The position numbers and the translations under genes are program-made. From a virus: a DNA stretch of 47,409 nucleotides. The stretch lies in IMG/VR virus record IMGVR_UViG_3300029736_000011; one strand, given 5' to 3'. The notes under the pieces are model-generated. The model was not told the origin of the DNA, did no database searches, and worked only from the letters and a program-made list of their open reading frames with translations. Below are positions 30,446-47,409 of the stretch, piece after piece. How positions within the stretch are numbered: the first letter of the stretch is position 1; each line of letters starts with the position of its first letter.

Positions 30446-32272
30446 ATGGGATACGGCCCCGTAAATGCCCCCAGCTCCGGCGGCAGCAGCGAGGAACTGG
30501 AGGCCGTCCGCAAACTGGCCCAAGGGGCGGCGGACACTGCCAATACCGCAAAGAACACTGCAGACACCGCAAAGGACACCGCCGACGCCGCCCTGGAGGC
30601 TGCGAATGCGGCCAGAGACGTCGCCAACACCGCCAAATCCACCGCAGACAGCGCCCTGGCGCTGGCCGGTACCGCCAAGAGCACTGCCGACACCGCCAAG
30701 AGCACCGCCGACCAGGCCCTGGAGACGGCGAACACCGCCAAATCCACCGCAGACGCCGCAGCATCCGCCGCCGAAAAGGCCCAGCAGACCGCAGACGAAG
30801 CGGCCCAGAGCATCAAGGACATCACCAATACGATCAGCTCCACGCCGTCGCAGAACGGCTCCCTGGTCTACAACGCCAGCGTCCAGTCCCCCACCTGGAA
30901 CAGCTATAACCCGGAGCAGCTCACCCTGGGCGGCGTGACGGAGGGCACCAACGCCGGGGAGTACGAGGCGACCTTCACCCCGAAGGGAGAGTACGTCTGG
31001 AGCGACGGCACCCAGGACGCCCGGACGGTCACCTGGACGATCAAGCGGAAAACCGTCCAGCTGCCCGCTCAGAGCGGAAGCCTCACCTACACCGGCAGCG
31101 CCCAGTCGCCCACCTGGGACAATTACAGCGCCGTGGAGCTGGACATGGGCGGCACCACCAGCGGTACCAACGCCGGGAGCTATCAGGCCACCTTCACGCC
31201 CACAAGCAACTTCCAGTGGAGCGACGGCACCTACGGGGCCAAGAGCGCCGCCTGGAGCATTGGCAAGGCGGCAGGCTCCCTGTCCATCAACCCCACCACG
31301 ATGACGCTGGACGTATCGACCCTTCAGAAGACCATCGCGGTCACCAGGGCCGGAAACGGCGCGATCTCCGTGTCGGTAGACAACGCCGCCGTCGCGGAGG
31401 CCAGCCTCTCCGGCACCACCATCACCGTCACCGGCAAGGCCAAGGGCACCGCGAAGATCACGGTCTCCGTCGCCGCCGGTACCAACCACACCGCCCCGGC
31501 CAGCGCGGTCTGCACCGCCACCGTCAGCCTGCCCAGCAAAACGCTGGCCGACAACGACCCAGCCACCATCCAGGCCGTGGGCGCAGCTGGCACCGGGGCC
31601 AGCTACTGGGCGGTAGGCGACAAAATCGGCATCGCCGTGAACGGCACCTTCGGAGGCCTCACGCTGAACCAGACAGTCTACGCCTTCATCCTGGGCTTCA
31701 ACCACAACCAGAGCGTGGAGGGCAACGGTATCGACTTCCAGTTCGGAAAGACGGCGGACGGCAGAGACATCGCCTTTGTCCAGAGCTACGGCAGCACCGG
31801 AACCGGCTTCTGCATGAACACCACGAACACCAACTCCGGCGGGTGGAAAAACAGCCACATGATGAAGACCATCTGCCCCGCCTTCCTCAACGCCCTCCCG
31901 GCGGCGTGGCGGAACGCCATCAAAAACTGCACCAAGTACAGCGACAACTCCGGCGGCGGAAGCGACAACGCCAGCTACGTCACCGCCACCACCCAGAAGA
32001 TCTTCCTGCTGGCGGAGTTCGAGGTACACGGCACCCGCTACTACGCCAACAGCGCGGAGCGGAACTATCAGAAGCAGTACGACTACTACAAAAACGGCAA
32101 CAGCAAGGTCAAATACCAGCATAGCAGCACCGGCTCCGCCTGCCTTTGGTGGCTGCGCTCGGTCAATGCGACCAGCGCGGCGAACTTCTGCGTTGTGAGC
32201 ACAGGCGGGGGCGCGAACGGCTACGGCGCCTTCTTTTCGTATGGCTTCGCGCCGGGCTTTAAGGCCGCCTAA
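30446..32272 (+). CDS. Tail fibre / receptor-binding protein, DGR target 1 (C-terminal C-type-lectin/DUF6273-like variable domain)
   Basis: 608 aa. Ala-rich TAKSTAD repeats, then two repeated domains of about 70 aa plus a Big_2-like region, then the C-terminus CLWWLRSVNATSAANFCVVSTGGGANGYGAFFSYGFAPGF, which overlaps VR1. Confidence 0.85.
   Translation: MGYGPVNAPSSGGSSEELEAVRKLAQGAADTANTAKNTADTAKDTADAALEAANAARDVANTAKSTADSALALAGTAKSTADTAKSTADQALETANTAKSTADAAASAAEKAQQTADEAAQSIKDITNTISSTPSQNGSLVYNASVQSPTWNSYNPEQLTLGGVTEGTNAGEYEATFTPKGEYVWSDGTQDARTVTWTIKRKTVQLPAQSGSLTYTGSAQSPTWDNYSAVELDMGGTTSGTNAGSYQATFTPTSNFQWSDGTYGAKSAAWSIGKAAGSLSINPTTMTLDVSTLQKTIAVTRAGNGAISVSVDNAAVAEASLSGTTITVTGKAKGTAKITVSVAAGTNHTAPASAVCTATVSLPSKTLADNDPATIQAVGAAGTGASYWAVGDKIGIAVNGTFGGLTLNQTVYAFILGFNHNQSVEGNGIDFQFGKTADGRDIAFVQSYGSTGTGFCMNTTNTNSGGWKNSHMMKTICPAFLNALPAAWRNAIKNCTKYSDNSGGGSDNASYVTATTQKIFLLAEFEVHGTRYYANSAERNYQKQYDYYKNGNSKVKYQHSSTGSACLWWLRSVNATSAANFCVVSTGGGANGYGAFFSYGFAPGFKAA
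30528..30808 (+). repeat. Degenerate repeats with 21-nt periodicity encoding TA(K/N)xTAD heptads
   Basis: accgccaa(a/g)(t/a)ccac(c/t)gc(a/c)gac-like units recur through this tract. Confidence 0.6.
32130..32268 (+). repeat. DGR variable repeat VR1
   Basis: Aligned by hand to TR 32924-33062 (offset 794). There are about 26 mismatches, all opposite TR adenines, for example AAC to GGC/TAC/AGC and AAT to CTT/GTT/TTT/TAT. Confidence 0.9.
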
Positions 32273-32298: not shown

Positions 32299-32320
32299 GG
32301 TGGGGGCGAAAGCCCCCGCC
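32299..32320 (+). other. GC hairpin with a GAAA tetraloop downstream of VR1 (candidate DGR target-recognition stem-loop)
   Basis: GGTGGGGGC-GAAA-GCCCCCGCC, a 9-position stem with one T.G pair. It lies 30 nt after the end of VR1. Confidence 0.6.
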
Positions 32321-32361: not shown

Positions 32362-32898
32362 ATGTCCGTTTACAAATCCCGCCGAAAAGACGCATCCGCC
32401 CAGTTCATCGCAGACGCCAGGGAGCTGCGCCGGATGACCGCCAGGGCCATGAAGCGGTTCCCCAGCAGCTACCGGTACATCGTGACCAACGGCCTGCTGG
32501 AGATGGCCAGGGAGATCGTGGTCAATGCCGTGAAGGGCAACGCCGTGTACCTGCACAAAGACCTCTCGCAAGGGGACTTCGACCTGCGGCACCGGTACCT
32601 GAAGATGGCGGAAGTGACCGCAGACGCATACCTGGAGGAAATCACCTTTGCCTTCTCCCTTGTGGATGATGGGAACAGCTTCTTCAAGAACAAGGCCGAA
32701 TACCAGAAGGTCTTCAACGGCCTCACGACCCAGGGCAACACCGTCCTGAAGCGGCTGCGGAAGGTGATCGACTCGGACAAGGATCGCTGGCGGCGGTACC
32801 AGAAGGAAAAGACTGAGGCCACGCCGAAGCCCCCACCCAAGGCCACCGGCGGAGGGCAGCACACGCCGCCCCCGCCGCCCTGGCCACCCAACACATAA
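32362..32898 (+). CDS. avd: Avd-like accessory variability determinant (four-helix bundle) with a Pro-rich C-terminal tail
   Basis: Lies between VR1 and the TR. RFPSSYRYIVTNGLLEMAREIVVNAVKGN resembles the Avd / 23S-IVS family core. The tail is TPKPPPKATGGGQHTPPPPPWPPNT. Confidence 0.65.
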   Translation: MSVYKSRRKDASAQFIADARELRRMTARAMKRFPSSYRYIVTNGLLEMAREIVVNAVKGNAVYLHKDLSQGDFDLRHRYLKMAEVTADAYLEEITFAFSLVDDGNSFFKNKAEYQKVFNGLTTQGNTVLKRLRKVIDSDKDRWRRYQKEKTEATPKPPPKATGGGQHTPPPPPWPPNT

Positions 32899-32923: not shown

Positions 32924-33062
32924 ACGGCTCCGCCTGCAATTGGTGGCTGCGCTCGGTCAATGCGACCAACACGACGAACTTCTGCAATGTGAACACAGAC
33001 GGGAGCGCGAACAACAACAACGCCTACAATTCGAATGGCTTCGCGCCGGGATTTAAGAAAAC
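32924..33062 (+). repeat. DGR template repeat (TR)
   Basis: Non-coding and rich in AAC/AAT (aacaacaacaac). It is the invariant partner of VR1 and VR2. By hand count, 33 adenines lie in the stretch shared with both VRs. Confidence 0.9.
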
Positions 33063-33382: not shown

Positions 33383-34675
33383 GTGGGGGCTGCGTCAGAC
33401 CTAAACAGAGAGGGGACAGCCCCTTTGACAAGTGAAGAACGGCGGGAGGCCCGATACCAGCGCCGAAAGGCGAAACGGGAGGCAAAGGCCCTGGAAACCA
33501 CCGGAAAGAGCTTCGACGAAGTAATCAACTTCGGAAACATGGTGGAGGCCGGAAGGAAGTGCTGCGACGGCTCCCGCTGGAAGACCTCGACGATCCTATT
33601 TGAAACGCACCTCCTGCCGGAGTGCGCCGACATCGTGGAGACCCTCGCCGGGGAGAAGCGGCGGTTCAAGGGCTTTCACAGCTTCACCACCGTGGAGCAC
33701 GGCAAGGCCCGTCAGATCGACGCTCTCCCCATCCAGGAGCGAGCAGGGCAGAAATGTCTGTGCCAGAACTACCTGACCAAAGCCTTCTCCCGGAGCTTCA
33801 TCTCCACCAACAGCGCCAGCCTGGAGGGCAGGGGCATGGACTATGCCCTGGAGACCCTGCACCAGCAGCTCACCCGCCACTTCCACCGGTACGGCCTGGA
33901 GGGCGGCATCTACCAGTTCGACTTCAAGGGCTACTTCGGGAGCCTGCCCCACGATCTAATCAAGGCCAGGGCCAGACGGGTGATCCGGGACGATAGACTC
34001 TACCGGCTCTACTGCAGCTACATCGACGATTTTCTGAAGATGAAGACCGCAGACCCAAAGGCGAAGCGGAAACGCGGCGTGGGCCTGGGGAGCGAGGTCT
34101 CCCAGATCACCGCCCTGGACGCTGCCAGCCCCATCGACCACTACTTCAAAGACCGGAGGCGAGTGGAGGCCTATGGCCGGTACATGGATGACGGCTACGC
34201 CATCAGCCCCTCCCTGGAGGAGCTGCGAGACCTCGACCGCTGCAACCACCTGCTGGCAGCAGACCTGGGCCTCACCCTGAACGACAAGAAATGCACCATC
34301 ACCCCCTTCAAGCACCACAGCTTCACCTTCCTGAAGGTGCGCTTCACACTGCAGGAGAGCGGCAAGGTCACCATGAAGCTGAGCCGCCAGAGCATCAAGG
34401 CCATCCGGCGGAAGATGGACATCTTCAGGGCCTGGGTGACAGAGGGGCAGATGGACGCCGAAGACGCCATCCAGAGCTACCAGAGCTGGAGGGCACACGC
34501 GAAGCGGTGCGACAGCTACCGCACCCTGGAAGCCATGGACGCCCGCTTCACGTCCATGTTTGCGCCGGAGCTTCGGCGCAGAAAGAACAAATTCCCCTGC
34601 ACCCTCCGGGCCAAGAAGACAAAGACCGGGTGGGAGTACACCAGAATCACGCAGCAGGCCACCCAGGCCGCATAA
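33383..34675 (+). CDS. DGR reverse transcriptase
   Basis: Contains YQFDFKGYFGSLPH (motif A region), GVGLGSEVSQITAL (the DGR-type [LIV]GxxxSQ motif) and GRYMDDGYAI (YMDD). GTG 33383 is taken from the ORF track, and the true start is uncertain. Confidence 0.9.
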   Translation: MGAASDLNREGTAPLTSEERREARYQRRKAKREAKALETTGKSFDEVINFGNMVEAGRKCCDGSRWKTSTILFETHLLPECADIVETLAGEKRRFKGFHSFTTVEHGKARQIDALPIQERAGQKCLCQNYLTKAFSRSFISTNSASLEGRGMDYALETLHQQLTRHFHRYGLEGGIYQFDFKGYFGSLPHDLIKARARRVIRDDRLYRLYCSYIDDFLKMKTADPKAKRKRGVGLGSEVSQITALDAASPIDHYFKDRRRVEAYGRYMDDGYAISPSLEELRDLDRCNHLLAADLGLTLNDKKCTITPFKHHSFTFLKVRFTLQESGKVTMKLSRQSIKAIRRKMDIFRAWVTEGQMDAEDAIQSYQSWRAHAKRCDSYRTLEAMDARFTSMFAPELRRRKNKFPCTLRAKKTKTGWEYTRITQQATQAA

Positions 34676-35121: not shown

Positions 35122-35775
35122 ATGTACAAGATCATCAGCGCCGGGAAAATCGTCGCCCTCTGCGACGCCCCCAGATACGTCACCAGGAACCCGGACACCG
35201 GGGCGCTGGTGGAAGCCACGGCGGAGGAAGCCATCGGCGTCTCCGTGACCGGGACGCTCTACAACCTGAACGGCGGCAGCGGCATCCCGGACGCACCGGA
35301 GGCCGTGGTCTCCGAGGTGGAGGGCGGCGAGATGGTATTCATCGCCATCTCCCAGGCCGACGCCGTCAGCACCACCAGCGGGATCGCCTTTGTCGCCATG
35401 GCGGAGGCCGGGACGATTGACGGCGTGACTGCCGGAGAACACGCCGACCTCTTCTCTCCGTGGGCCTATCCCGTCAACTACACCGTGGGCCAGATCCGGC
35501 GCTACACGGACGGGAAGCTGTATAAGTGCCTTCAGGCCCACACGTCGCAGGCGGACTGGACGCCGGACACGGCGGTGAGCCTGTGGGTGAGCATCTCAGA
35601 CCCGGCGGAGGAATGGCCGGAGTGGTCTCAGCCCCTGGGAGCGCATGACGCCTACTCCAAGGGGGCAAAGGTGAGCCACAACGGGAAGCACTGGATCAGC
35701 GACCTGGACGCCAACGTCTGGGAGCCTGGGCAGTACGGATGGACGGAAGCCCCGGCGGAGGCCCAGGAGGAATGA
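35122..35775 (+). CDS. Protein with two C-terminal CBM5/12-like carbohydrate-binding repeats
   Basis: AGGAGG RBS. YTVGQIRRYTDGKLYKCLQAHTSQADWTPD...SLW and YSKGAKVSHNGKHWISDLDANVWEPG resemble chitin-binding type-3 repeats. Confidence 0.6.
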   Translation: MYKIISAGKIVALCDAPRYVTRNPDTGALVEATAEEAIGVSVTGTLYNLNGGSGIPDAPEAVVSEVEGGEMVFIAISQADAVSTTSGIAFVAMAEAGTIDGVTAGEHADLFSPWAYPVNYTVGQIRRYTDGKLYKCLQAHTSQADWTPDTAVSLWVSISDPAEEWPEWSQPLGAHDAYSKGAKVSHNGKHWISDLDANVWEPGQYGWTEAPAEAQEE

Positions 35776-40600: not shown

Positions 40601-42214
40601 CTACCGCCTTTCATGGAGCGGCAATGCCAGGATGAACACCGGGCCGACGAAGTAGATCTCCGTCCCAGGTTCGCCTGGCTCCCCTTTGGTGGAGGCAGGG
40701 GGAGCTAATACGAACCGCCCCTCCGCCCCGGCAACGGCCTCGGCATCCGCGACAAGCTCCATGTCGACCTCCGACCCCTTCCCGGAGTAGTTGAACGCCA
40801 CCTGGAGCCTATCGTCCCACAGATATACCGAATTCACAAAGGAATCAATGACCCTCCGCCTGAAAGCAGCATCCTCCAGATCACCGCCCCGGAACTTTTC
40901 AAACCAATAAACCACGAAGTCCCGCTCGATGTGCGTCTGGGCAGCCTCCTCCAGGGTGATGGCGTCCCGGAGCCGGGAGGACTCCGCCTCAAGTTCCACC
41001 AGCCGCCCCTTTGTTGTCGTGGTGATGATCCCGGCCTCGATGGCCCTCATGAGGTTTGCCGTGGATCTCTGGTTTTCGGAGAGCTGATCCCGCAGGCCAA
41101 GCAGAACGGCGGAGTTTGCCTCCCGCTCCTGGTAGGCCATGACCGCATCCGCCATCCACTCGATGACCTCCGGCTTCAACACATAGTCCAGGGTAGCCTG
41201 CACCACCACCCGCTCCAGCCAATCCCGCCCCACATTGGCCTTTGAGCAGCAGTGCTCCGTCCGGCGCTTTTGGCAGACATAGTAGTGGTGCAAAGCGCCG
41301 GAGCGGGCCGTGCCGGACACGCCAACCATTGGAGCGCCGCACAGGCCACAGAACAGCTTCCCAGTGAGCATATACTCTCCGTTTTCCCGATGCCGCCCCT
41401 GGGGATTTTTCTTGTTCTTCAGGCGCTCGCCCACCGCCAGGAACAGCGCCCGGTCGATGACCGGAGGGACGCCATCCTCAACCCGGACATCCCCAAAACG
41501 ATAAACCCCAACATAGGTCTCGTTCGTCAGCAGACGGTGGAAGCTATTCCTTCCCCAGAGACCGCCCCTCTTCGTTCGGATGCCCCGGCCATTCAAGTCG
41601 TTGGAAATCTCGACGAACGGGACGCCGTCTGCAACCTTGCGGAAGATTTCACGCACCACCTCCGCTTCCCCAGGATCAACGGCAAAGCGACCGTCCTCGC
41701 CCTTGCGGTACCCGAACGGGATGGAGCCGCTATTCACCTTGCAATTCATGGCATTATACCTCATCCCCCGCCGGATATTTTGCGACAGATTGGCGGAGTA
41801 ATACTCTGCGGAGCCTTCCAGGACGGACTCCAGCAAAATGCCCTCCGGGCCGTCTGGTATGGATTCCTTTGCATACAGAACCCGGACGCCGCACCGCTTC
41901 AGCCTGAACTTATAGGTGGCGGAGTCGTATCGGTTGCGGGCAAAGCGGTCAATCTTCCAGACAATCAGGTAGGCCCAGCGCCGATGAGCGGCATCCCGCA
42001 GCATCGTCTGAAACTGGGGCCGCTTATCCGTCATGCCGGAGAGCGCCCGGTCGGCGTAGACCTTTACCACCCGGAGGCCCAGGGAGCTGGCATAGGCCTC
42101 GCAGTCGGCTACCTGCTGCTCGATGGATACATCCCGCTGATTATGGGAGGAATAGCGGGCATAGATGACGCAGTCGCCATGGCAGCGGTCAATAGACAAA
42201 TCAAGCTCCATCAT
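40601..42214 (-). CDS. int: Large serine recombinase (integrase)
   Basis: 537 aa. VIYARYSSHNQ (catalytic Ser region), ...VWKIDRFARN, a recombinase domain, and the zinc-ribbon CGLCGAPM...YYVCQ. Confidence 0.92.
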   Translation of the reverse strand: MMELDLSIDRCHGDCVIYARYSSHNQRDVSIEQQVADCEAYASSLGLRVVKVYADRALSGMTDKRPQFQTMLRDAAHRRWAYLIVWKIDRFARNRYDSATYKFRLKRCGVRVLYAKESIPDGPEGILLESVLEGSAEYYSANLSQNIRRGMRYNAMNCKVNSGSIPFGYRKGEDGRFAVDPGEAEVVREIFRKVADGVPFVEISNDLNGRGIRTKRGGLWGRNSFHRLLTNETYVGVYRFGDVRVEDGVPPVIDRALFLAVGERLKNKKNPQGRHRENGEYMLTGKLFCGLCGAPMVGVSGTARSGALHHYYVCQKRRTEHCCSKANVGRDWLERVVVQATLDYVLKPEVIEWMADAVMAYQEREANSAVLLGLRDQLSENQRSTANLMRAIEAGIITTTTKGRLVELEAESSRLRDAITLEEAAQTHIERDFVVYWFEKFRGGDLEDAAFRRRVIDSFVNSVYLWDDRLQVAFNYSGKGSEVDMELVADAEAVAGAEGRFVLAPPASTKGEPGEPGTEIYFVGPVFILALPLHERR

Positions 42215-42725: not shown

Positions 42726-43214
42726 CTAAGATACTTCGGATGCGCCCCCGGCTTCTTTTTCAATGCCCAACTGGCGGTCGAGTTCGGCATGAAGATCCTC
42801 GGCGGACGGAGAGTGGCCTGGTAAGGCCGGAGAACCGGGCTCCACATCGCCAAAACCCTCCACGACCTCCCGGAGGAAATTCATGATGGTGCGTTGCGAA
42901 GACTCCGGAAGGCCGACCAGCTTCTCGATGAAGACATAGGTCTCGTGCGTCATTTGCGGGTACCTGGCAGCAAGAGCATCAAGCTCAGATGTCGGGGACG
43001 GGAGAAACATTTCCCCCTCTCCGGTTCGGAGCCAGTTCTCGTTGACGCCAAACTCCTTACATATCAGAGAGATCACCTGGCTCGACGGAGCACGACGCCC
43101 AGTTTCATATCCAGTTATCGTATTTTGGACAGAGCCGATTCGAGCGGCAAATTCCTGCTGAGTTAGGTCAAGAGACCTTCGGAGCTTTTTAATGCGCTCG
43201 TTCAAGAAAGACAC
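42726..43214 (-). CDS. CI-like repressor (XRE-family HTH)
   Basis: NERIKKLRRSLDLTQQEFAARIGSVQNTITGYETGRRAPSSQVISLICKEFGVNENWLRTGEGEMF. The start may instead be TTG 43205. Confidence 0.8.
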   Translation of the reverse strand: MSFLNERIKKLRRSLDLTQQEFAARIGSVQNTITGYETGRRAPSSQVISLICKEFGVNENWLRTGEGEMFLPSPTSELDALAARYPQMTHETYVFIEKLVGLPESSQRTIMNFLREVVEGFGDVEPGSPALPGHSPSAEDLHAELDRQLGIEKEAGGASEVS

Positions 43215-43291: not shown

Positions 43292-43320
43292 TTGACAAAC
43301 ACCGCGATGCGGTTTATACT
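43292..43320 (+). promoter_or_regulatory. Sigma70-type early rightward promoter
   Basis: TTGACA (43292-43297), 17 nt, TATACT (43315-43320). Confidence 0.65.
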
Positions 43321-43352
43321 TATCGCAGAGACAACAAAAGGAGGTGAACACA

Positions 43353-43565
43353 ATGAAAAGCGAAAAGGCCTACACCGCTGCCCAGCTGGACAACGCAGAC
43401 CGGACGATGGCGTTTCTTGCGACCCTGCCTGAGAGCTGCCGCTCCATGGCCATCGCCATGGCAAACGCCTTTATCGCCGGGATGGAGGCGCAGGCGCGAA
43501 TCGACGCCACCCAGGCGGAGCCGAACCAGACCGCCGACCGAGGCTTGCAGGGGGGACACCGATGA
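43353..43565 (+). CDS. Hypothetical first early protein (Cro position)
   Basis: AAGGAGGTGA RBS. 70 aa. No clear HTH recognised. Confidence 0.5.
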   Translation: MKSEKAYTAAQLDNADRTMAFLATLPESCRSMAIAMANAFIAGMEAQARIDATQAEPNQTADRGLQGGHR

Positions 43566-43753
43566 GACCTAAGCCAAAGGTGCTGGCCACCGCCAGCGGC
43601 GGCATTGATACCAGGTCGATTCCTCAGCACATTAAAGAGAACCTGGCACAAGCCGCCTTTCGGAGCATCCTCCAGGCCTACAACGACCCGTTGGTGCGCT
43701 CGGATTACGAGCGATGGAAAGCAGGGCGTGGCTCCGAAAGAATGAATGCGTGA
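43562..43753 (+). CDS. Hypothetical protein
   Basis: 63 aa. Overlapping start and stop codons with both neighbours. Confidence 0.5.
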   Translation: MRPKPKVLATASGGIDTRSIPQHIKENLAQAAFRSILQAYNDPLVRSDYERWKAGRGSERMNA

Positions 43754-44537
43754 GAGAAAGCGAGGATGCGGAATGGACTGGGAATCCATTGAAAAGGAAA
43801 TCGGACAGGGCGCACTCGAATCAGCCCAGGCGGCTCAGCAGCGCATAGCCGACCGGAGGGCAGCTCGCCGTAAACGGCAGCGCCGGAGGCGGCTCGTGCA
43901 GCTGGCCACCGCCGGATCTGCAGTGGCCATCGCCATCGGCGTGGTCTTTATGAGTGCGGCCAGCGAAAGGAGCCGGACGCCCACGGCTCCTTTGCCTTCC
44001 CAAGAGGCCAGCACCTCGGATCAGACGCAGTACGCCTACATAGAGCCGACCGCAACGCCGGAGCCTACCCCGGAGGCCACCGACGCAACGAAGCTCCTGG
44101 TGAGCGTCCCTTTGGATGCGGAGACGCAGACCGCCATATTTGAGCTTTGCGGCAGCGACCCGGACACCTTCTGCGCCGTCATGGCTATCTCCAAGACGGA
44201 AAGCAACTTCGACACCGACGCCGTCGGCGACAACGGCGTCAGCATTGGGATGGCGCAGATCAACACCACCTGGCAAACGGGCCGCATGGAATCCCTCGGC
44301 GTTACCGACCTGACAGACCCGGTACAATGCGCAACCGTCTGCCTGGACTACCTCCGGGAGCTTTCGGAGGATTACGGTTTCGGATGGGTCGAAGACCACG
44401 GCCTGTACCTCGCCTACAACATGGGGCCTGGAGGGGCCAGGAACGCTATCAACAGCGGAGTATCATCCAGCAAATACAGCAGGGCCGTCCTTTCCGCATA
44501 CGGAGAGTACGCTGCAGAGATGGAGGTGTCGGAATGA
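43746..44537 (+). CDS. Membrane-anchored lytic transglycosylase (SLT domain) protein
   Basis: TM helix LATAGSAVAIAIGVVFM. MAISKTESNFD (catalytic Glu-Ser), SIGMAQIN and YLAYNMG are SLT-like. Confidence 0.7.
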   Translation: MRERKRGCGMDWESIEKEIGQGALESAQAAQQRIADRRAARRKRQRRRRLVQLATAGSAVAIAIGVVFMSAASERSRTPTAPLPSQEASTSDQTQYAYIEPTATPEPTPEATDATKLLVSVPLDAETQTAIFELCGSDPDTFCAVMAISKTESNFDTDAVGDNGVSIGMAQINTTWQTGRMESLGVTDLTDPVQCATVCLDYLRELSEDYGFGWVEDHGLYLAYNMGPGGARNAINSGVSSSKYSRAVLSAYGEYAAEMEVSE

Positions 44538-44908
44538 AGATCGCCCTGCAGGGAAACACCCTCCTTATCAAAGAAGCCGATAATGTCCAGTTCGCGGTCA
44601 TCAAGAGCTGGAACAAGATGCGCTGGGACAGGAAGACGCAGCTGCTCAGCGGAACGGCGGACATGGAACTGCTGGACAAGCTGGCCAGCATCGTCCAGCT
44701 GCCCCCGGCCATCGCCCAGATCAGGGCGCAGCTCCACCGTGTCCAGGAGGCCATAGACAGCGAGCGAGTGAATCCACACCCGAAGCCCCTCGCCGATTAC
44801 CCCGTGAAGATGTCCCTCTACGACCACCAGGTGCGGGGAGCCAATATGTGCCTGGTCGCCTTTGGATGGGCCAGCCCCGATGCAATCGAACGGAGGAATG
44901 AACCATGA
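44534..44908 (+). CDS. SNF2-helicase N-terminal fragment (ends just before motif I)
   Basis: The start MKIALQGNTLLIKEADNVQF...W...K resembles phage SNF2 N-termini. The sequence ends ...MSLYDHQVRGANMCLV, followed by 13 unrelated residues and a stop. Confidence 0.55.
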   Translation: MKIALQGNTLLIKEADNVQFAVIKSWNKMRWDRKTQLLSGTADMELLDKLASIVQLPPAIAQIRAQLHRVQEAIDSERVNPHPKPLADYPVKMSLYDHQVRGANMCLVAFGWASPDAIERRNEP

Positions 44909-45273
44909 GCGAAGCCATGACCATCAACGACATCATCAACCAGCTGGGAAGCCTTCGGGCAAGCAGTGCGGAGTTTGCCAAAAGCGACCCGGAGAACGAA
45001 ATCTGGCAGGCCGACGTCACCGCCTGCGAGACATCCATCCGCATCCTCGCCGCCCTGAGCGGGGAGGGCTGCACCGACCTGGAGACCACCCTGGATTTCC
45101 TGCAGGACTACAATTCCCTGGCGAAGCAGTACCAGACCATCCACCGGAAGTACGAGGCCCCAGGGAAGCCCACCCACAAAGACGGCGTCTGGCATTGCCC
45201 CGCCTGCAACAGCCGCGTCCAAATCAACCATACCCACTGCCACCGCTGCGGCAAGAAGATCGGGTGGCGTTGA
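44905..45273 (+). CDS. Hypothetical protein with a C-terminal zinc ribbon
   Basis: ATGA overlap with the previous ORF. 122 aa. Contains CPACNSRVQINHTHCHRCG. Confidence 0.6.
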   Translation: MSEAMTINDIINQLGSLRASSAEFAKSDPENEIWQADVTACETSIRILAALSGEGCTDLETTLDFLQDYNSLAKQYQTIHRKYEAPGKPTHKDGVWHCPACNSRVQINHTHCHRCGKKIGWR

Positions 45274-45331
45274 GTGGGTGGGTGCGCACTTATTCAGACC
45301 CTTAACAGCCTGACTGGCTGAAGGAGCATAG

Positions 45332-46312
45332 ATGAAAGGAATGAACGACATGAAAAAGCCCTTGAAAGTTTTTCTTTCCGGCCCCATCTCGTCAAGGCTG
45401 GAAACCTACAAGGCGGAGTTTGATGACGCCGCACGGATCGTCAGCGAGGCAGGCCACCTGCCGCTGAACCCGGCCACCCTGCCCAGCGGCATGGAGAACC
45501 GCGACTACATGAGGATCTGCCTCGCCATGCTGGACAGCGCAGACCTCCTCCTTCAGCTCCCCGGCTGGGGCAAGAGCGCCGGAGCAATCGCAGAGCGCAC
45601 CGTCGCTATGAAGACCGGCGTCGAGAGCCTGACCCTGGAGGATTTCATCCGGGAGTACGTCCATAGAGCTGGCGCAACACCCGTCCGCACAATCAGGGAT
45701 GGAGCCATCGATCTGGCAAACCTGAAAGCGGCGATCCGGAACGGGGATGGCCCGGAGATGATCCGGCCCCACGACGAACTGGACATCCTCCTGGACACTG
45801 AAAAAACCATCACCGTGACTTGCGGATTTGTCAACAGCGAAATGGCACGCTTTATTTTCAAAGACTGCTATGACGAATGCGAGATGAACGATGACAACAC
45901 CAATCAGACCGGATACTTCGGAAGCAAGGGCCGCAGGCACGTCCTGGAGGACATTTATCCCCATCTGCCCCAGGAATTGCGGAGCATCATCCGGCCACGC
46001 GAGATCGTGGAGACCATCGGCGGCGAGGTAAAGAAATACGAAGACCCGCTCTGGTTGCCATCTGCAACAGATCTCTTCGGAGCACCAGAGGATAAATGGT
46101 GGCCGGATGAGCCTGGCAGCTTCCAGCTCCCCATCTTCCTGAAGGAGCGAGACCGGGTAAAAGAGTGCCCCAACAGAGGCACATGGTATTGGTGGCTGCG
46201 CTCGGTCCGTGCGACCGACACGGCGGACTTCTGCGGTGTGAGCACGGACGGGGGCGCGGACTACGACGGCGCCTACTTTTCGTTTGGCTTCGCGCCGGGC
46301 TTTGACCTCTAA
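45332..46312 (+). CDS. DGR target 2: DUF4406-like (nucleoside 2-deoxyribosyltransferase-fold) N-terminal domain fused to a DUF6273/C-type-lectin-like variable domain
   Basis: N-terminus: KVFLSGPIS...YMRICLAMLDSADLLLQLPGWGKSAGAIAERTVA. C-terminus: WYWWLRSVRATDTADFCGVSTDGGADYDGAYFSFGFAPGF, which overlaps VR2. Confidence 0.8.
   Translation: MKGMNDMKKPLKVFLSGPISSRLETYKAEFDDAARIVSEAGHLPLNPATLPSGMENRDYMRICLAMLDSADLLLQLPGWGKSAGAIAERTVAMKTGVESLTLEDFIREYVHRAGATPVRTIRDGAIDLANLKAAIRNGDGPEMIRPHDELDILLDTEKTITVTCGFVNSEMARFIFKDCYDECEMNDDNTNQTGYFGSKGRRHVLEDIYPHLPQELRSIIRPREIVETIGGEVKKYEDPLWLPSATDLFGAPEDKWWPDEPGSFQLPIFLKERDRVKECPNRGTWYWWLRSVRATDTADFCGVSTDGGADYDGAYFSFGFAPGFDL
46187..46305 (+). repeat. DGR variable repeat VR2 (remote)
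   Basis: Aligned by hand to TR 32938-33056 (offset 13249). There are about 27 mismatches, all opposite TR adenines, for example AAT to CGT/GGT/TTT and AAC to GAC/TAC/GGC. Confidence 0.9.
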
Positions 46313-46329
46313 TCCAAAAATCACAAAAT

Positions 46330-46351
46330 CCCCGGCGCTTCTGCGCCGGGG
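46330..46351 (+). other. GC hairpin with a 4-nt loop downstream of VR2
   Basis: CCCCGGCGC-TTCT-GCGCCGGGG, a perfect 9-bp stem. It lies 24 nt after the end of VR2. Confidence 0.6.
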
Positions 46352-46365
46352 AAGCAAGATAGAAG

Positions 46366-47409
46366 GTGATCCACACGACACCCGTGAATAAAGGCTTCGG
46401 CTTCCTCTTTGAGATGGGCTGTGGCAAGACCCTGACGGCCATCGCCGTGGCCGGAGCCGGATACCAGCAGAAGCGGATCAGCAGGGTGCTGATCGTCGCC
46501 CCCACCTCGGTGGTCGCCGTCTGGCCCAAAGAGTTCCAGGATTACGCAGCCTTCCCCTACACCATCCGCACCCTGCTGGGAACGAAGCAGCAGCGTCTCA
46601 AGGCCCTGGCAGACCTTGAGCGGTTCCCATACCCACACCTGAAGGTGGCGGTGATCAACTACGAGAGCACCTGGAGAGAGGAAATATTCGACGCCCTCCT
46701 GGACTTCGACGCAGACCTGGTCATCGCCGATGAGAGCCAGCGCATCAAATCCCACGACGCAGCCCAGAGCAAGGCCATGCACCAGCTGGGGGACAAAGCC
46801 CGGTACAAGCTCATCCTCTCCGGCACCCCGGTACAGAACGAAGCCGTAGACCTCTGGAGCCAATACCGGTTTTTAGACCCTACCATCTTCGGGACGAACT
46901 TCTACGCCTTCCGCAGCCGCTACTGCGAGATGGGCGGCTTCAACCGCAAACAGATCGTCCGGTACCGTGACCTGGACACTCTCATCCGAAAGGAACACAG
47001 CATCGCCTACCGCGTGACCAAAGAGGAAGCCCTCGACCTGCCGGAGCAGACCTTCGAGAGCCGCTACATCACACTGAGCCGCTCGGAGCGTAACCTTTAC
47101 GACCGGCTCCGGCGGGACAGCTATGCGGAGCTGGCAGACGGCGGCACCATCACCGCCACCACAGTTCTGACGAAGCTCCTGCGCCTGCAGCAGTTCACCG
47201 GCGGCTTCCTGGCGGAGGATGACGCCATCCAGCCGAAGCTGGTCAGTCGGGGGAAGCTTGACGCCCTGGAGGACATCCTCCAAGACTACGTGGTCGAGGG
47301 CAAAAAGAAGCTGGTAATATTCGCCCGGTTCATCCCAGAGATTCACGAGATCGAGGCTCTGTGCGAAAAGACGCTCCGCTCCGCCGGAATGAAAGCCGTG
47401 GCCATCTAC
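46366..47409 (+). CDS. SNF2/DEAD-like helicase, ATPase core; 3' end runs off the window and continues at base 100
   Basis: The frame is open from TAG 46360-46362 to the window end. Contains FEMGCGKT (motif I), VIADESQRIK (motif II) and LSGTPVQN (motif III). There is no ATG upstream of motif I; candidate starts are GTG 46366 and GTG 46384. Confidence 0.85.
   Translation, partial: MIHTTPVNKGFGFLFEMGCGKTLTAIAVAGAGYQQKRISRVLIVAPTSVVAVWPKEFQDYAAFPYTIRTLLGTKQQRLKALADLERFPYPHLKVAVINYESTWREEIFDALLDFDADLVIADESQRIKSHDAAQSKAMHQLGDKARYKLILSGTPVQNEAVDLWSQYRFLDPTIFGTNFYAFRSRYCEMGGFNRKQIVRYRDLDTLIRKEHSIAYRVTKEEALDLPEQTFESRYITLSRSERNLYDRLRRDSYAELADGGTITATTVLTKLLRLQQFTGGFLAEDDAIQPKLVSRGKLDALEDILQDYVVEGKKKLVIFARFIPEIHEIEALCEKTLRSAGMKAVAIY
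47311..47409. repeat. Terminal overlap, second copy (identical to 1-99)
   Basis: Read directly. Confidence 0.95.

Follow-up and report, generated by a model that had tools for sequence, protein, structure and literature searches.

The 47,409-nucleotide (nt) sequence of IMG/VR virus record IMGVR_UViG_3300029736_000011, analysed here over its full length (the window), carries one diversity-generating retroelement (DGR), which serves a second target gene in trans. Phage DGRs are usually explained as retargeting tail fibres. This second target (target 2; 45332–46312, plus strand) instead lies ~13 kb from the tail module, in the early operon, and by context its product is predicted to be a soluble protein of the early/replication module. 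The open reading frame (ORF), with a GGAG 8 nt 5′ of its ATG, encodes 326 residues comprising a DUF4406 domain, a flexible linker, and a DUF6273 module that bears a variable repeat (VR2).

The DGR repeats form a three-copy family of 133 nt each, with VR1 starting at 32131, the template repeat (TR) at 32925, and VR2 at 46174. The 119-nt TR core (32938–33056, plus strand) contains 35 adenines and 12 AAY codons in the target frame; the equivalent cores lie at the end of the target 1 ORF (VR1, 32144–32262) and at the C-terminal end of the target 2 ORF (VR2, 46187–46305, plus strand), where the repeat encodes residues 286–325. Over the core, VR2 differs from TR at 22 positions, every one of them a TR adenine (A>G 14, A>T 6, A>C 2), with zero mismatches at other bases; the chance of all 22 falling on the 35 adenines among 119 positions is p = 2.9e-15. 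VR1 behaves likewise, with 20/20 mismatches to the TR core on TR adenines. Widening the VR2 comparison to 46174–46306 gives 30 mismatches, eight of them non-adenine; since these eight lie outside the 119-nt core, they indicate that the end of the homology has been reached. An initial annotation had claimed VR2 as a remote, same-strand target with adenine-only mismatches and a substitution pattern different from that of VR1. The offset of 13,249 nt from TR to VR2 on the same strand, the restriction to adenines, and the 18 positions at which VR1 and VR2 differ all agree with this, but the annotation’s count of about 27 mismatches does not stand, 22 being found.

VR2 is diversified in nature. The exact 326-residue protein is present on six contigs in public collections (the longest 47,437 nt), and its 90%-identity protein cluster has 1,376 distinct members. 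Alignment of 15 of these members shows residues 1–285 to be nearly invariant, with variation almost limited to residues 286–318 (hypervariable at 286, 293, 295–299, 302, 304–306, 308, 310–313, 315, 316, and 318). At the DNA level, each of eight related phages bears its own distinct VR2, and the varying columns comprise 32 of the 35 TR-adenine columns versus 5 of the 84 others (Fisher p = 2e-20), so that the variation across related genomes anticipated for VR2 is indeed present. This evidence is at the population and between-genome level. Because the variation falls on adenine columns and the cluster varies within the VR, VR2 is an active target.

The elements expected at a DGR target site accompany VR2. 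Its GC-rich 3′ end (GGCTTCGCGCCGGGCTTTGA; 46285–46305, plus strand) is a candidate initiation of mutagenic homing (IMH) site, recognized by fixed differences from TR: VR2 has C and G at fixed positions where TR has A, the candidate IMH columns are identical in all eight VR2 copies, and the three non-varying adenine columns of VR2 include two of the fixed TR/VR differences in this end. Such fixed 3′ differences are the pattern expected for an IMH/IMH* pair. VR2 shares its GC-rich 3′ end with VR1, and from the example of Bordetella phage BPP-1 this end may act as an IMH. A GC hairpin with a 9–10 base pair (bp) stem and a 4-nt loop (46330–46351, plus strand), 24 nt 3′ of VR2, is a candidate DGR target-recognition hairpin/cruciform. 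Hairpins of this form (9–10 bp, GC, 4-nt loop) follow VR1 (32302–32317), VR2, and the VRs of distant relatives, while a search 3′ of TR found none; in five lineages ten pairs of the VR2 hairpin are kept, two of them through compensatory changes. The 3′ end and the hairpin probably guide homing together. A role for the VR2 hairpin as a plus-strand terminator was rejected, there being no T-run after it on that strand. On the minus strand, 46329–46352 does have a T-run after the hairpin and is picked up by the scan as resembling an intrinsic terminator; with no minus-strand gene upstream, its effect might be to keep antisense transcription out of the target gene, or the resemblance may be a coincidence.

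The cassette itself has the usual components. The DGR reverse transcriptase (RT; 33383–34675, plus strand, 430 residues) matches RVT_1 and group II intron-type RTs and retains the hallmark motifs LGSEVSQ ([ILV]GxxxSQ) at residue 235 and YMDD at residue 267. Between target 1 and TR, the canonical place for an accessory gene, lies a 178-residue ORF (32362–32898, plus strand) that we assign by position as a putative Avd; Pfam and NCBIfam HMM (hidden Markov model) searches returned no match to it, and BLASTP against the Toutatis Avd showed no similarity. Target 1 (30446–32272, plus strand, 608 residues) is tail fibre-like, with matches to phrog_37900 and tail-fibre PHROGs and a C-terminal DUF6273 domain containing VR1; positions 30518–30782 (plus strand) of this gene show a 21-nt (heptad) periodic repeat encoding an alanine zipper-like ‘TAKSTAD’ coiled-coil stretch. 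A 217-residue ORF with a Trp/Tyr-rich C-terminus (35122–35775, plus strand) begins ~450 nt 3′ of the end of the RT gene.

The variable part of target 2 belongs to a conserved C-terminal module of ~210 residues (45686–46309, plus strand; residues ~119–326 in the family alignment). It matches PF19789 (DUF6273) over residues 181–319 (45872–46288; 48.6 bits against a cut-off of 23.5, E 1.1e-12), and AlphaFold2 (AF2) modelled residues 121–326 with a pLDDT (predicted local distance difference test) of ~85–95. The top PDB match of this model in Foldseek is 9qa6, a gut-bacterial IgA peptidase with an N-terminal DUF6273; the model also resembles C-type lectins, weakly, and its top structural matches in BFVD are small viral DUF6273 proteins. 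Residues 185–324 are 32% identical to residues 457–605 of target 1, and at the level of sequence the C-terminal domain of target 2 is a DUF6273 paralogue of target 1, a parallel that the initial annotation had drawn. No immunoglobulin-like domains were found in target 2 by HMM, and its VR is C-terminal, unlike that of tentaclins. A phmmer search of the VR stretch (46172–46303, residues 281–324) against the PDB matched only antibody heavy-chain framework 3/complementarity-determining region 3 (E ~0.2); we regard this likeness (LRSVRATDTA.FC...) as a composition-driven chance match.

The N-terminal domain (45365–45622, plus strand; residues 12–97) matches PF14359 (DUF4406; 73.5 bits against a cut-off of 22, E 1.9e-20) and phrog_355, ‘nucleoside 2-deoxyribosyltransferase’ (NDT; E 5.6e-25). 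AF2 predicts a Rossmann-like β-α fold for residues 1–118 (pLDDT 88, predicted template modelling score 0.82), for which the best PDB neighbor in Foldseek is 1t1j (template modelling (TM) score 0.71). Further neighbors include NDTs (TM score ~0.6–0.7), the cytidine monophosphate N-glycosidases MilB and BcmB, and DNPH1; TIR domains (7xoz, RPP1) were also matched, more weakly than NDTs. The residues invariant in DUF4406 are kept (Gly17, Tyr26, Phe30, Asn46, Pro47, Asp58–Arg61, Ser82, Gly84, and Glu88), and with them the Ser82-x-Gly84-x-x-x-Glu88 motif, which the sole sequence-level PDB alignment, a weak one (E ~0.1), places on the catalytic loop and Glu of MilB. The NDT catalytic Glu is retained (Glu88); the apparent position of the 5′-OH-binding Asp reads Ser, as in the nucleoside monophosphate (NMP) N-glycosidase MilB. 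The first 100 residues are 40–46% identical to stand-alone phage DUF4406 proteins (N15 gp57, phiKO2 gp58); stand-alone DUF4406/‘NDT’ phage proteins share the same conserved motifs, but have 95–170 residues and no variable domain. The NDT-like DUF4406 fold proposed from the sequence alone, and the two-domain composition of the protein, are both borne out, the two domains by HMM and the fold by the model and its structural neighbors.

In the full-length AF2 run the N-terminus was poorly modelled (pLDDT 33–57), probably due to the mixed alignment, and the linker (~residues 99–118) was of low confidence. As had been proposed, a hydrophobicity scan of target 2 revealed no transmembrane segment (maximum KD19 1.09) and no signal-like N-terminus. 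HMM searches of the protein found no NTPase or adaptor domain, and PADLOC and NCBIfam searches gave no match to it. An internal start yielding a separate VR-module product was ruled out, with no Met or ribosome-binding site near residues 115–120.

The placement of the gene points to early expression. An exact 99-nt terminal overlap (1–99 = 47311–47409) indicates that the phage genome is complete at ~47.3 kb and is circular (or terminally redundant); the sequence is circularly permuted and has a GC content of 61%; megablast of 43300–47409 against the INPHARED phages gave no match, implying no close cultured relative. Structural genes extend to ~30 kb and are followed by target 1 and the DGR cassette, then by a serine integrase (40601–42214, minus strand) and a cI-like repressor with matches to repressor PHROGs (42726–43214, minus strand). 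Divergent from the repressor gene, a strong sigma-70-like early promoter (43292–43320, plus strand; 11/12 consensus match) heads the operon with target 2; promoter and terminator scans found no plus-strand terminator-like site between this promoter and 45332, and no promoter of target 2’s own. The rightward operon comprises small ORFs, an SLT-like transglycosylase, target 2, an SNF2-family helicase directly 3′ of it (46366–47409, plus strand; phrog_62, E 1.4e-80), and then primase-type genes at the sequence start, the helicase gene running on at 100–438 because the sequence ends overlap by 99 nt. The assignment of the gene to the early/replication region, outside the tail module, is thereby upheld, and relatives at 83% and 55% identity have the fusion in the identical slot, just ahead of the SNF2 helicase gene. 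The transglycosylase (43746–44537, plus strand) is membrane anchored through one transmembrane helix. Cell-wall hydrolase genes (Hydrolase_2, SLT, 3D domain) recur near the small DGR target in the early regions of many phages; an early-expressed peptidoglycan hydrolase is unexpected.

A similar placement is seen across the wider family. Exhaustive comparison of the 212-residue module with 50%-identity representatives gave 1,060 matches at E ≤ 1e-3 and 263 at E ≤ 1e-10, most of 200–300 residues and a few of them giant multi-repeat proteins. In every phage context examined the module lies within replication, recombination, or methylase genes: with Rep/HD/RecU in one, SbcCD-like/DnaC-like/RecU/ParB in another, and NUMOD4 and SNF2 in a third; beside DNA polymerase I and a helicase in Acutalibacter phage Fontainebleau; beside methylases and Erf/SSB in Roseburia phage Shimadzu; and, in Dulem virus 34, with a methylase upstream and Rep 1 kb downstream. 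A Pfam census of 144 same-strand neighbors at 12 further loci returned mostly cell-wall hydrolases, RecU, Rep, DNA methylases, and DnaC-like proteins; among its top 25 families, capsid and portal are absent and the tail is represented only by a single tail-lysozyme (Phage_lysozyme2) match, and the large terminase appears only ~4 kb downstream. An alignment-based GTDB scan assigned the module, by the labels of metagenome-assembled genomes (MAGs), mainly to Oscillospiraceae, Oscillibacter, and other Clostridia, and found the fusion in an Oscillospiraceae MAG; a GTDB scan by exact peptides found nothing. Three module contigs (L024, L033, and L035) are binned in MAGs labelled Desulfovibrio or Bacteroidales and are probably mis-binned phage contigs. 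The giant proteins P0193 (3973 residues, 12 matched stretches), P0230, P0246, P0268, and P0311 contain many tandem DUF6273-type modules and are presumably bacterial surface proteins.

Relatives also reveal how the two halves of target 2 are put together. A homologue search recovered only ~11 clusters with both domains, compared with hundreds of ~210–300-residue DUF6273-only proteins matching residues ~115–326 at 50–60% identity, some of whose clusters hold thousands of members. The slot upstream of the SNF2 helicase is filled in one relative by the VR module alone (213 residues) and in another by DUF4406 alone (147 residues, 58% identical). In a third (L010, 3825–4328, encoding P0151) it holds a DUF4406 domain 95% identical to the target 2 N-terminus, followed by an unrelated low-complexity tail; P0151 shares the linker ‘GPERVPAEPE’ with some fusions (compare P0007 and P0008), and its divergence within the linker places a recombination breakpoint there. 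Because the slot can hold either half alone, DUF4406 looks like a resident early gene and the VR module like a portable one; the ~210-residue module, together with its putative IMH and hairpin, looks like the portable unit. Other N-terminal partners of the module are an ~85-residue helical extension, a ProQ_C-like domain, and a Zn-ribbon. In P0038, P0073, and P0030 the module is joined to a GTPase fragment (PF01926/PF02421), a ProQ_C-like domain (PF24203), and a Cys-rich Zn-ribbon; some of these N-terminal partners may be assembly or gene-calling chimeras.

Remote targets of this kind have precedents. A global DGR survey states that remote targets are beyond its detection (Roux et al., PMC8144416), and remote second targets of non-structural or unknown function have been published for gut phages (PMC8008677; bioRxiv 10.1101/575076; PMC11792537; bioRxiv 10.1101/2024.10.15.618418). 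Among the closest is orf43 of Shimadzu, whose small module of the DUF6273 type is a homologue (HHalign probability 97.1%, E 4.8e-11; identity ~27–31%). It is likewise remote from TR and RT and has been shown experimentally to be diversified, with mutations in its VR seen in 2% of virion reads and also in isolates from the mouse gut (bioRxiv 10.1101/575076). Its early-gene neighbors are DNA methyltransferases on one side and the Erf recombinase on the other; unlike target 2, orf43 has 209 residues and no DUF4406, and a separate ‘deoxyribosyltransferase’, orf49, is encoded 3.7 kb downstream. Quimbyvirus, a Bacteroides phage, similarly has one DGR with two targets, one by the tail genes and one remote; the remote target, judged non-structural, sits amid methyltransferases and a nuclease, in a defence/counter-defence island, and a role in phage-host conflict has been proposed for it (Benler et al., 2021, PMC8008677). 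In contrast to target 2, Quimbyvirus belongs to another phage family with a host of another phylum, its target is on the opposite strand, and no enzyme fusion is reported. The Faecalibacterium phages Toutatis, Lelie, and CP11 have a second VR far from TR in a ~215-residue DUF6273 core protein (PMC11792537; bioRxiv 10.1101/2024.10.15.618418). In Toutatisvirus this second VR gene is a core gene, 17.5 kb from TR, and its authors suggest that it encodes a receptor-binding protein (RBP) (bioRxiv 10.1101/2024.10.15.618418); small DUF6273 targets of Toutatis-like phages are also read as RBP type elsewhere (PMC10743442). These targets lack DUF4406, and their authors favor an RBP or leave the function open. 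The Toutatis record places the gene for this protein, gp24, in the early region, with methylases to one side and the replication initiator to the other. Only its VR segment aligns with the family described here (HHalign probability 16%), which does not support homology beyond the VR, and we keep gp24 as an analogous DUF6273 target of an early region. The comparison with BPP-1 holds for the TR/VR/RT/accessory logic, the adenine-specific mutagenesis, the VR at the C-terminus of a C-type lectin-fold protein, and the GC-rich IMH-like end with its downstream hairpin; BPP-1 Mtd, however, is a tail-fibre tip protein adjoining the cassette, whereas target 2 lies at a distance of 13 kb, has a context that marks it as non-structural, and carries a fused enzyme-like fold.

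The initial annotation’s statement that no example of this architecture has been characterized can accordingly be kept for the DUF4406 fusion, which alone appears undescribed, but not for remote non-structural targets, which are already known from Quimbyvirus, Shimadzu, and Toutatis/Lelie. A full-text literature search for ‘DUF4406’ returned three unrelated papers, none of which ties DUF4406 to a DGR; a preprint cataloguing anti-defence systems makes no mention of NDT, DUF4406, lectin, or DGR; and a zeta-crAss DGR paper deals with tail fibres only. BFVD has no entry with both domains, and in a tblastn search no phage record matched the full protein over ≥80% of its length.

From the sequence and population data, the RT copies TR RNA, probably together with the product of the Avd-like ORF, with misincorporation opposite adenines, and the cDNA replaces VR2, 13.2 kb away, in trans. 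The GC-rich 3′ end that VR1 and VR2 have in common would most likely guide homing, along with the GC hairpin; both are absent or altered at TR. Replacement recodes ~20 residues (within 286–318) on a predicted β-hairpin surface of the lectin-like DUF6273 domain. The recoded protein would be a soluble, non-structural product of the early rightward operon, made alongside the replication genes; in this lineage a resident early gene for a DUF4406 protein appears to have acquired the ~210-residue VR module at its 3′ end, by way of a flexible linker. Its variable domain may bind a polymorphic intracellular partner (a host defence or replication-related factor, or a protein of a rival element), and through such binding the phage could adjust its host range at the intracellular level; the contribution of the DUF4406 half could be a nucleotide-directed N-glycosidase activity, or merely oligomerization and avidity. 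Taken as a whole, that is, as a DGR target served in trans, an early non-structural protein, and an intracellular partner, this explanation is probable and the best we can offer, although by no means secure. For its parts, an intracellular ligand is plausible, and the chances of a role in intracellular conflict or host-factor use stand at about even. The observation made in the initial annotation is therefore confirmed, and its interpretation partly supported.

Several points weigh against this explanation. The DUF6273 fold is also found in tail fibres, RBPs, and giant surface proteins. The ‘early’ designation derives from synteny and a consensus promoter match, and the Avd assignment is putative and positional only. 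DUF4406 is, by sequence, outside the NDT family proper: target 2 has no HMM match to PF05014, and the position of the NDT catalytic Tyr appears to be Phe in the target 2 lineage, so that the domain is NDT-like in fold but not a demonstrated NDT. In the full-length AF2 model the two domains are not confidently placed relative to each other. The fusion is also rare, with a single 50%-identity cluster in the top matches and, as noted, no BFVD entry, and it could be a neutral by-product of module insertion.

This last point leads to the strongest of the alternatives, which is compatible with the proposed explanation: a mobile VR module landed 3′ of the resident DUF4406 gene, whose stop codon was lost, and the halves function independently, in which case the enzyme-like fold would be uninformative about what the variable domain binds. 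The occurrence of either half alone in the same slot, the breakpoint within the low-confidence linker, the lack of DUF4406 in most family members, whose N-termini vary, and the commonness of stand-alone early DUF4406/NDT genes in many phages all fit such an incidental fusion. Yet the in-frame fusion is kept down to 55% identity and in the Oscillospiraceae MAG, and its DUF4406 half is strongly conserved. In Dulem virus 34 and Shimadzu, moreover, a separate DUF4406/NDT gene is found within 1.7–3.7 kb of the module; this hints weakly at linkage, and is only suggestive since most contexts have no such gene. We regard an incidental fusion as a serious possibility that nonetheless falls short of even odds. 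True functional coupling of the enzyme and binder halves appears unlikely. We give a similarly low standing to a self-reprogramming intracellular effector, in which the DGR would retarget the lectin-fold domain onto polymorphic host defence or host-factor proteins and thereby direct or gate a fused NMP/NAD-type N-glycosidase; if this were true, target 2 would be a viral ‘adaptive counter-immunity’ module, and the small early DUF6273 targets of Clostridia phages would set intracellular host range.

A virion or extracellular protein that binds receptors or mucus and is merely encoded outside the structural module would be in keeping with the lectin-like DUF6273 fold, typical of DGR-diversified RBPs and tail fibres, and with the use of the same TR by the tail fibre-like target 1; it is also the view taken of the Toutatis-like targets by their authors, cited above, which counts against an intracellular role. 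However, RBP- and tail fibre-type DGR targets (Mtd-like, tentaclins) are characterized by a location in or beside the tail module that target 2 does not share. The family has a replication/recombination placement in every context examined, across several unrelated module types, and target 2 itself lies in the early operon upstream of helicase and primase genes, has neither a signal peptide-like N-terminus nor a transmembrane segment, and is fused to a cytoplasmic-type nucleotide-enzyme fold. A surface role is for these reasons distinctly improbable.

Less probable again, we consider, is a prophage immune sensor-effector acting in abortive infection or superinfection exclusion, in which the lectin domain would sense invader proteins and the NDT/TIR-like N-glycosidase would destroy NAD+ or nucleotides. 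Cellular DGR targets with predicted cytoplasmic C-type lectin (CLec) domains fused to TIR, protease, or STAND have been described in bacteria (Doré et al., 2024, PMC10907252). Target 2 resembles these conflict sensors in joining a variable CLec to an effector-type domain, in some of them TIR, whose fold is related to that of NDT, and the DUF4406 model also matches TIR, if less well than NDTs. The described sensors are, however, cellular and large, with STAND/MoxR NTPases and peptidases, whereas target 2 is phage encoded, has 326 residues, and contains no NTPase or adaptor domain. It gave no PADLOC match, and its gene is placed inside a repressor-controlled lytic early operon, with no promoter of its own found, rather than as a lysogeny-expressed moron; moreover, a stand-alone DUF4406 without a sensor domain fills the same slot in relatives. 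Finally, the possibility that VR2 is no longer diversified and has decayed since some earlier duplication or homing event, as have the relic pairs with non-adenine changes in some published multi-VR phages (PMC12386605), is effectively refuted by the absence of non-adenine mismatches, the eight phages with different VR2s, the confinement of variation almost entirely to the VR in the 15 members aligned from 1,376 distinct sequences, and the intact hairpin and 3′ end.

Thus, many gut Clostridia phages hypermutate a small protein encoded with their replication genes, with ~1,060 50%-identity clusters matching the module. DUF4406 is the first recognizable enzyme-type partner on such a target and offers an experimental handle on its function. 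If the target 2 family acts inside the cell, phages would be using targeted hypermutation in post-entry conflicts, for defence evasion or host-factor capture, and DGR-linked host range in gut viromes would need to be reinterpreted.

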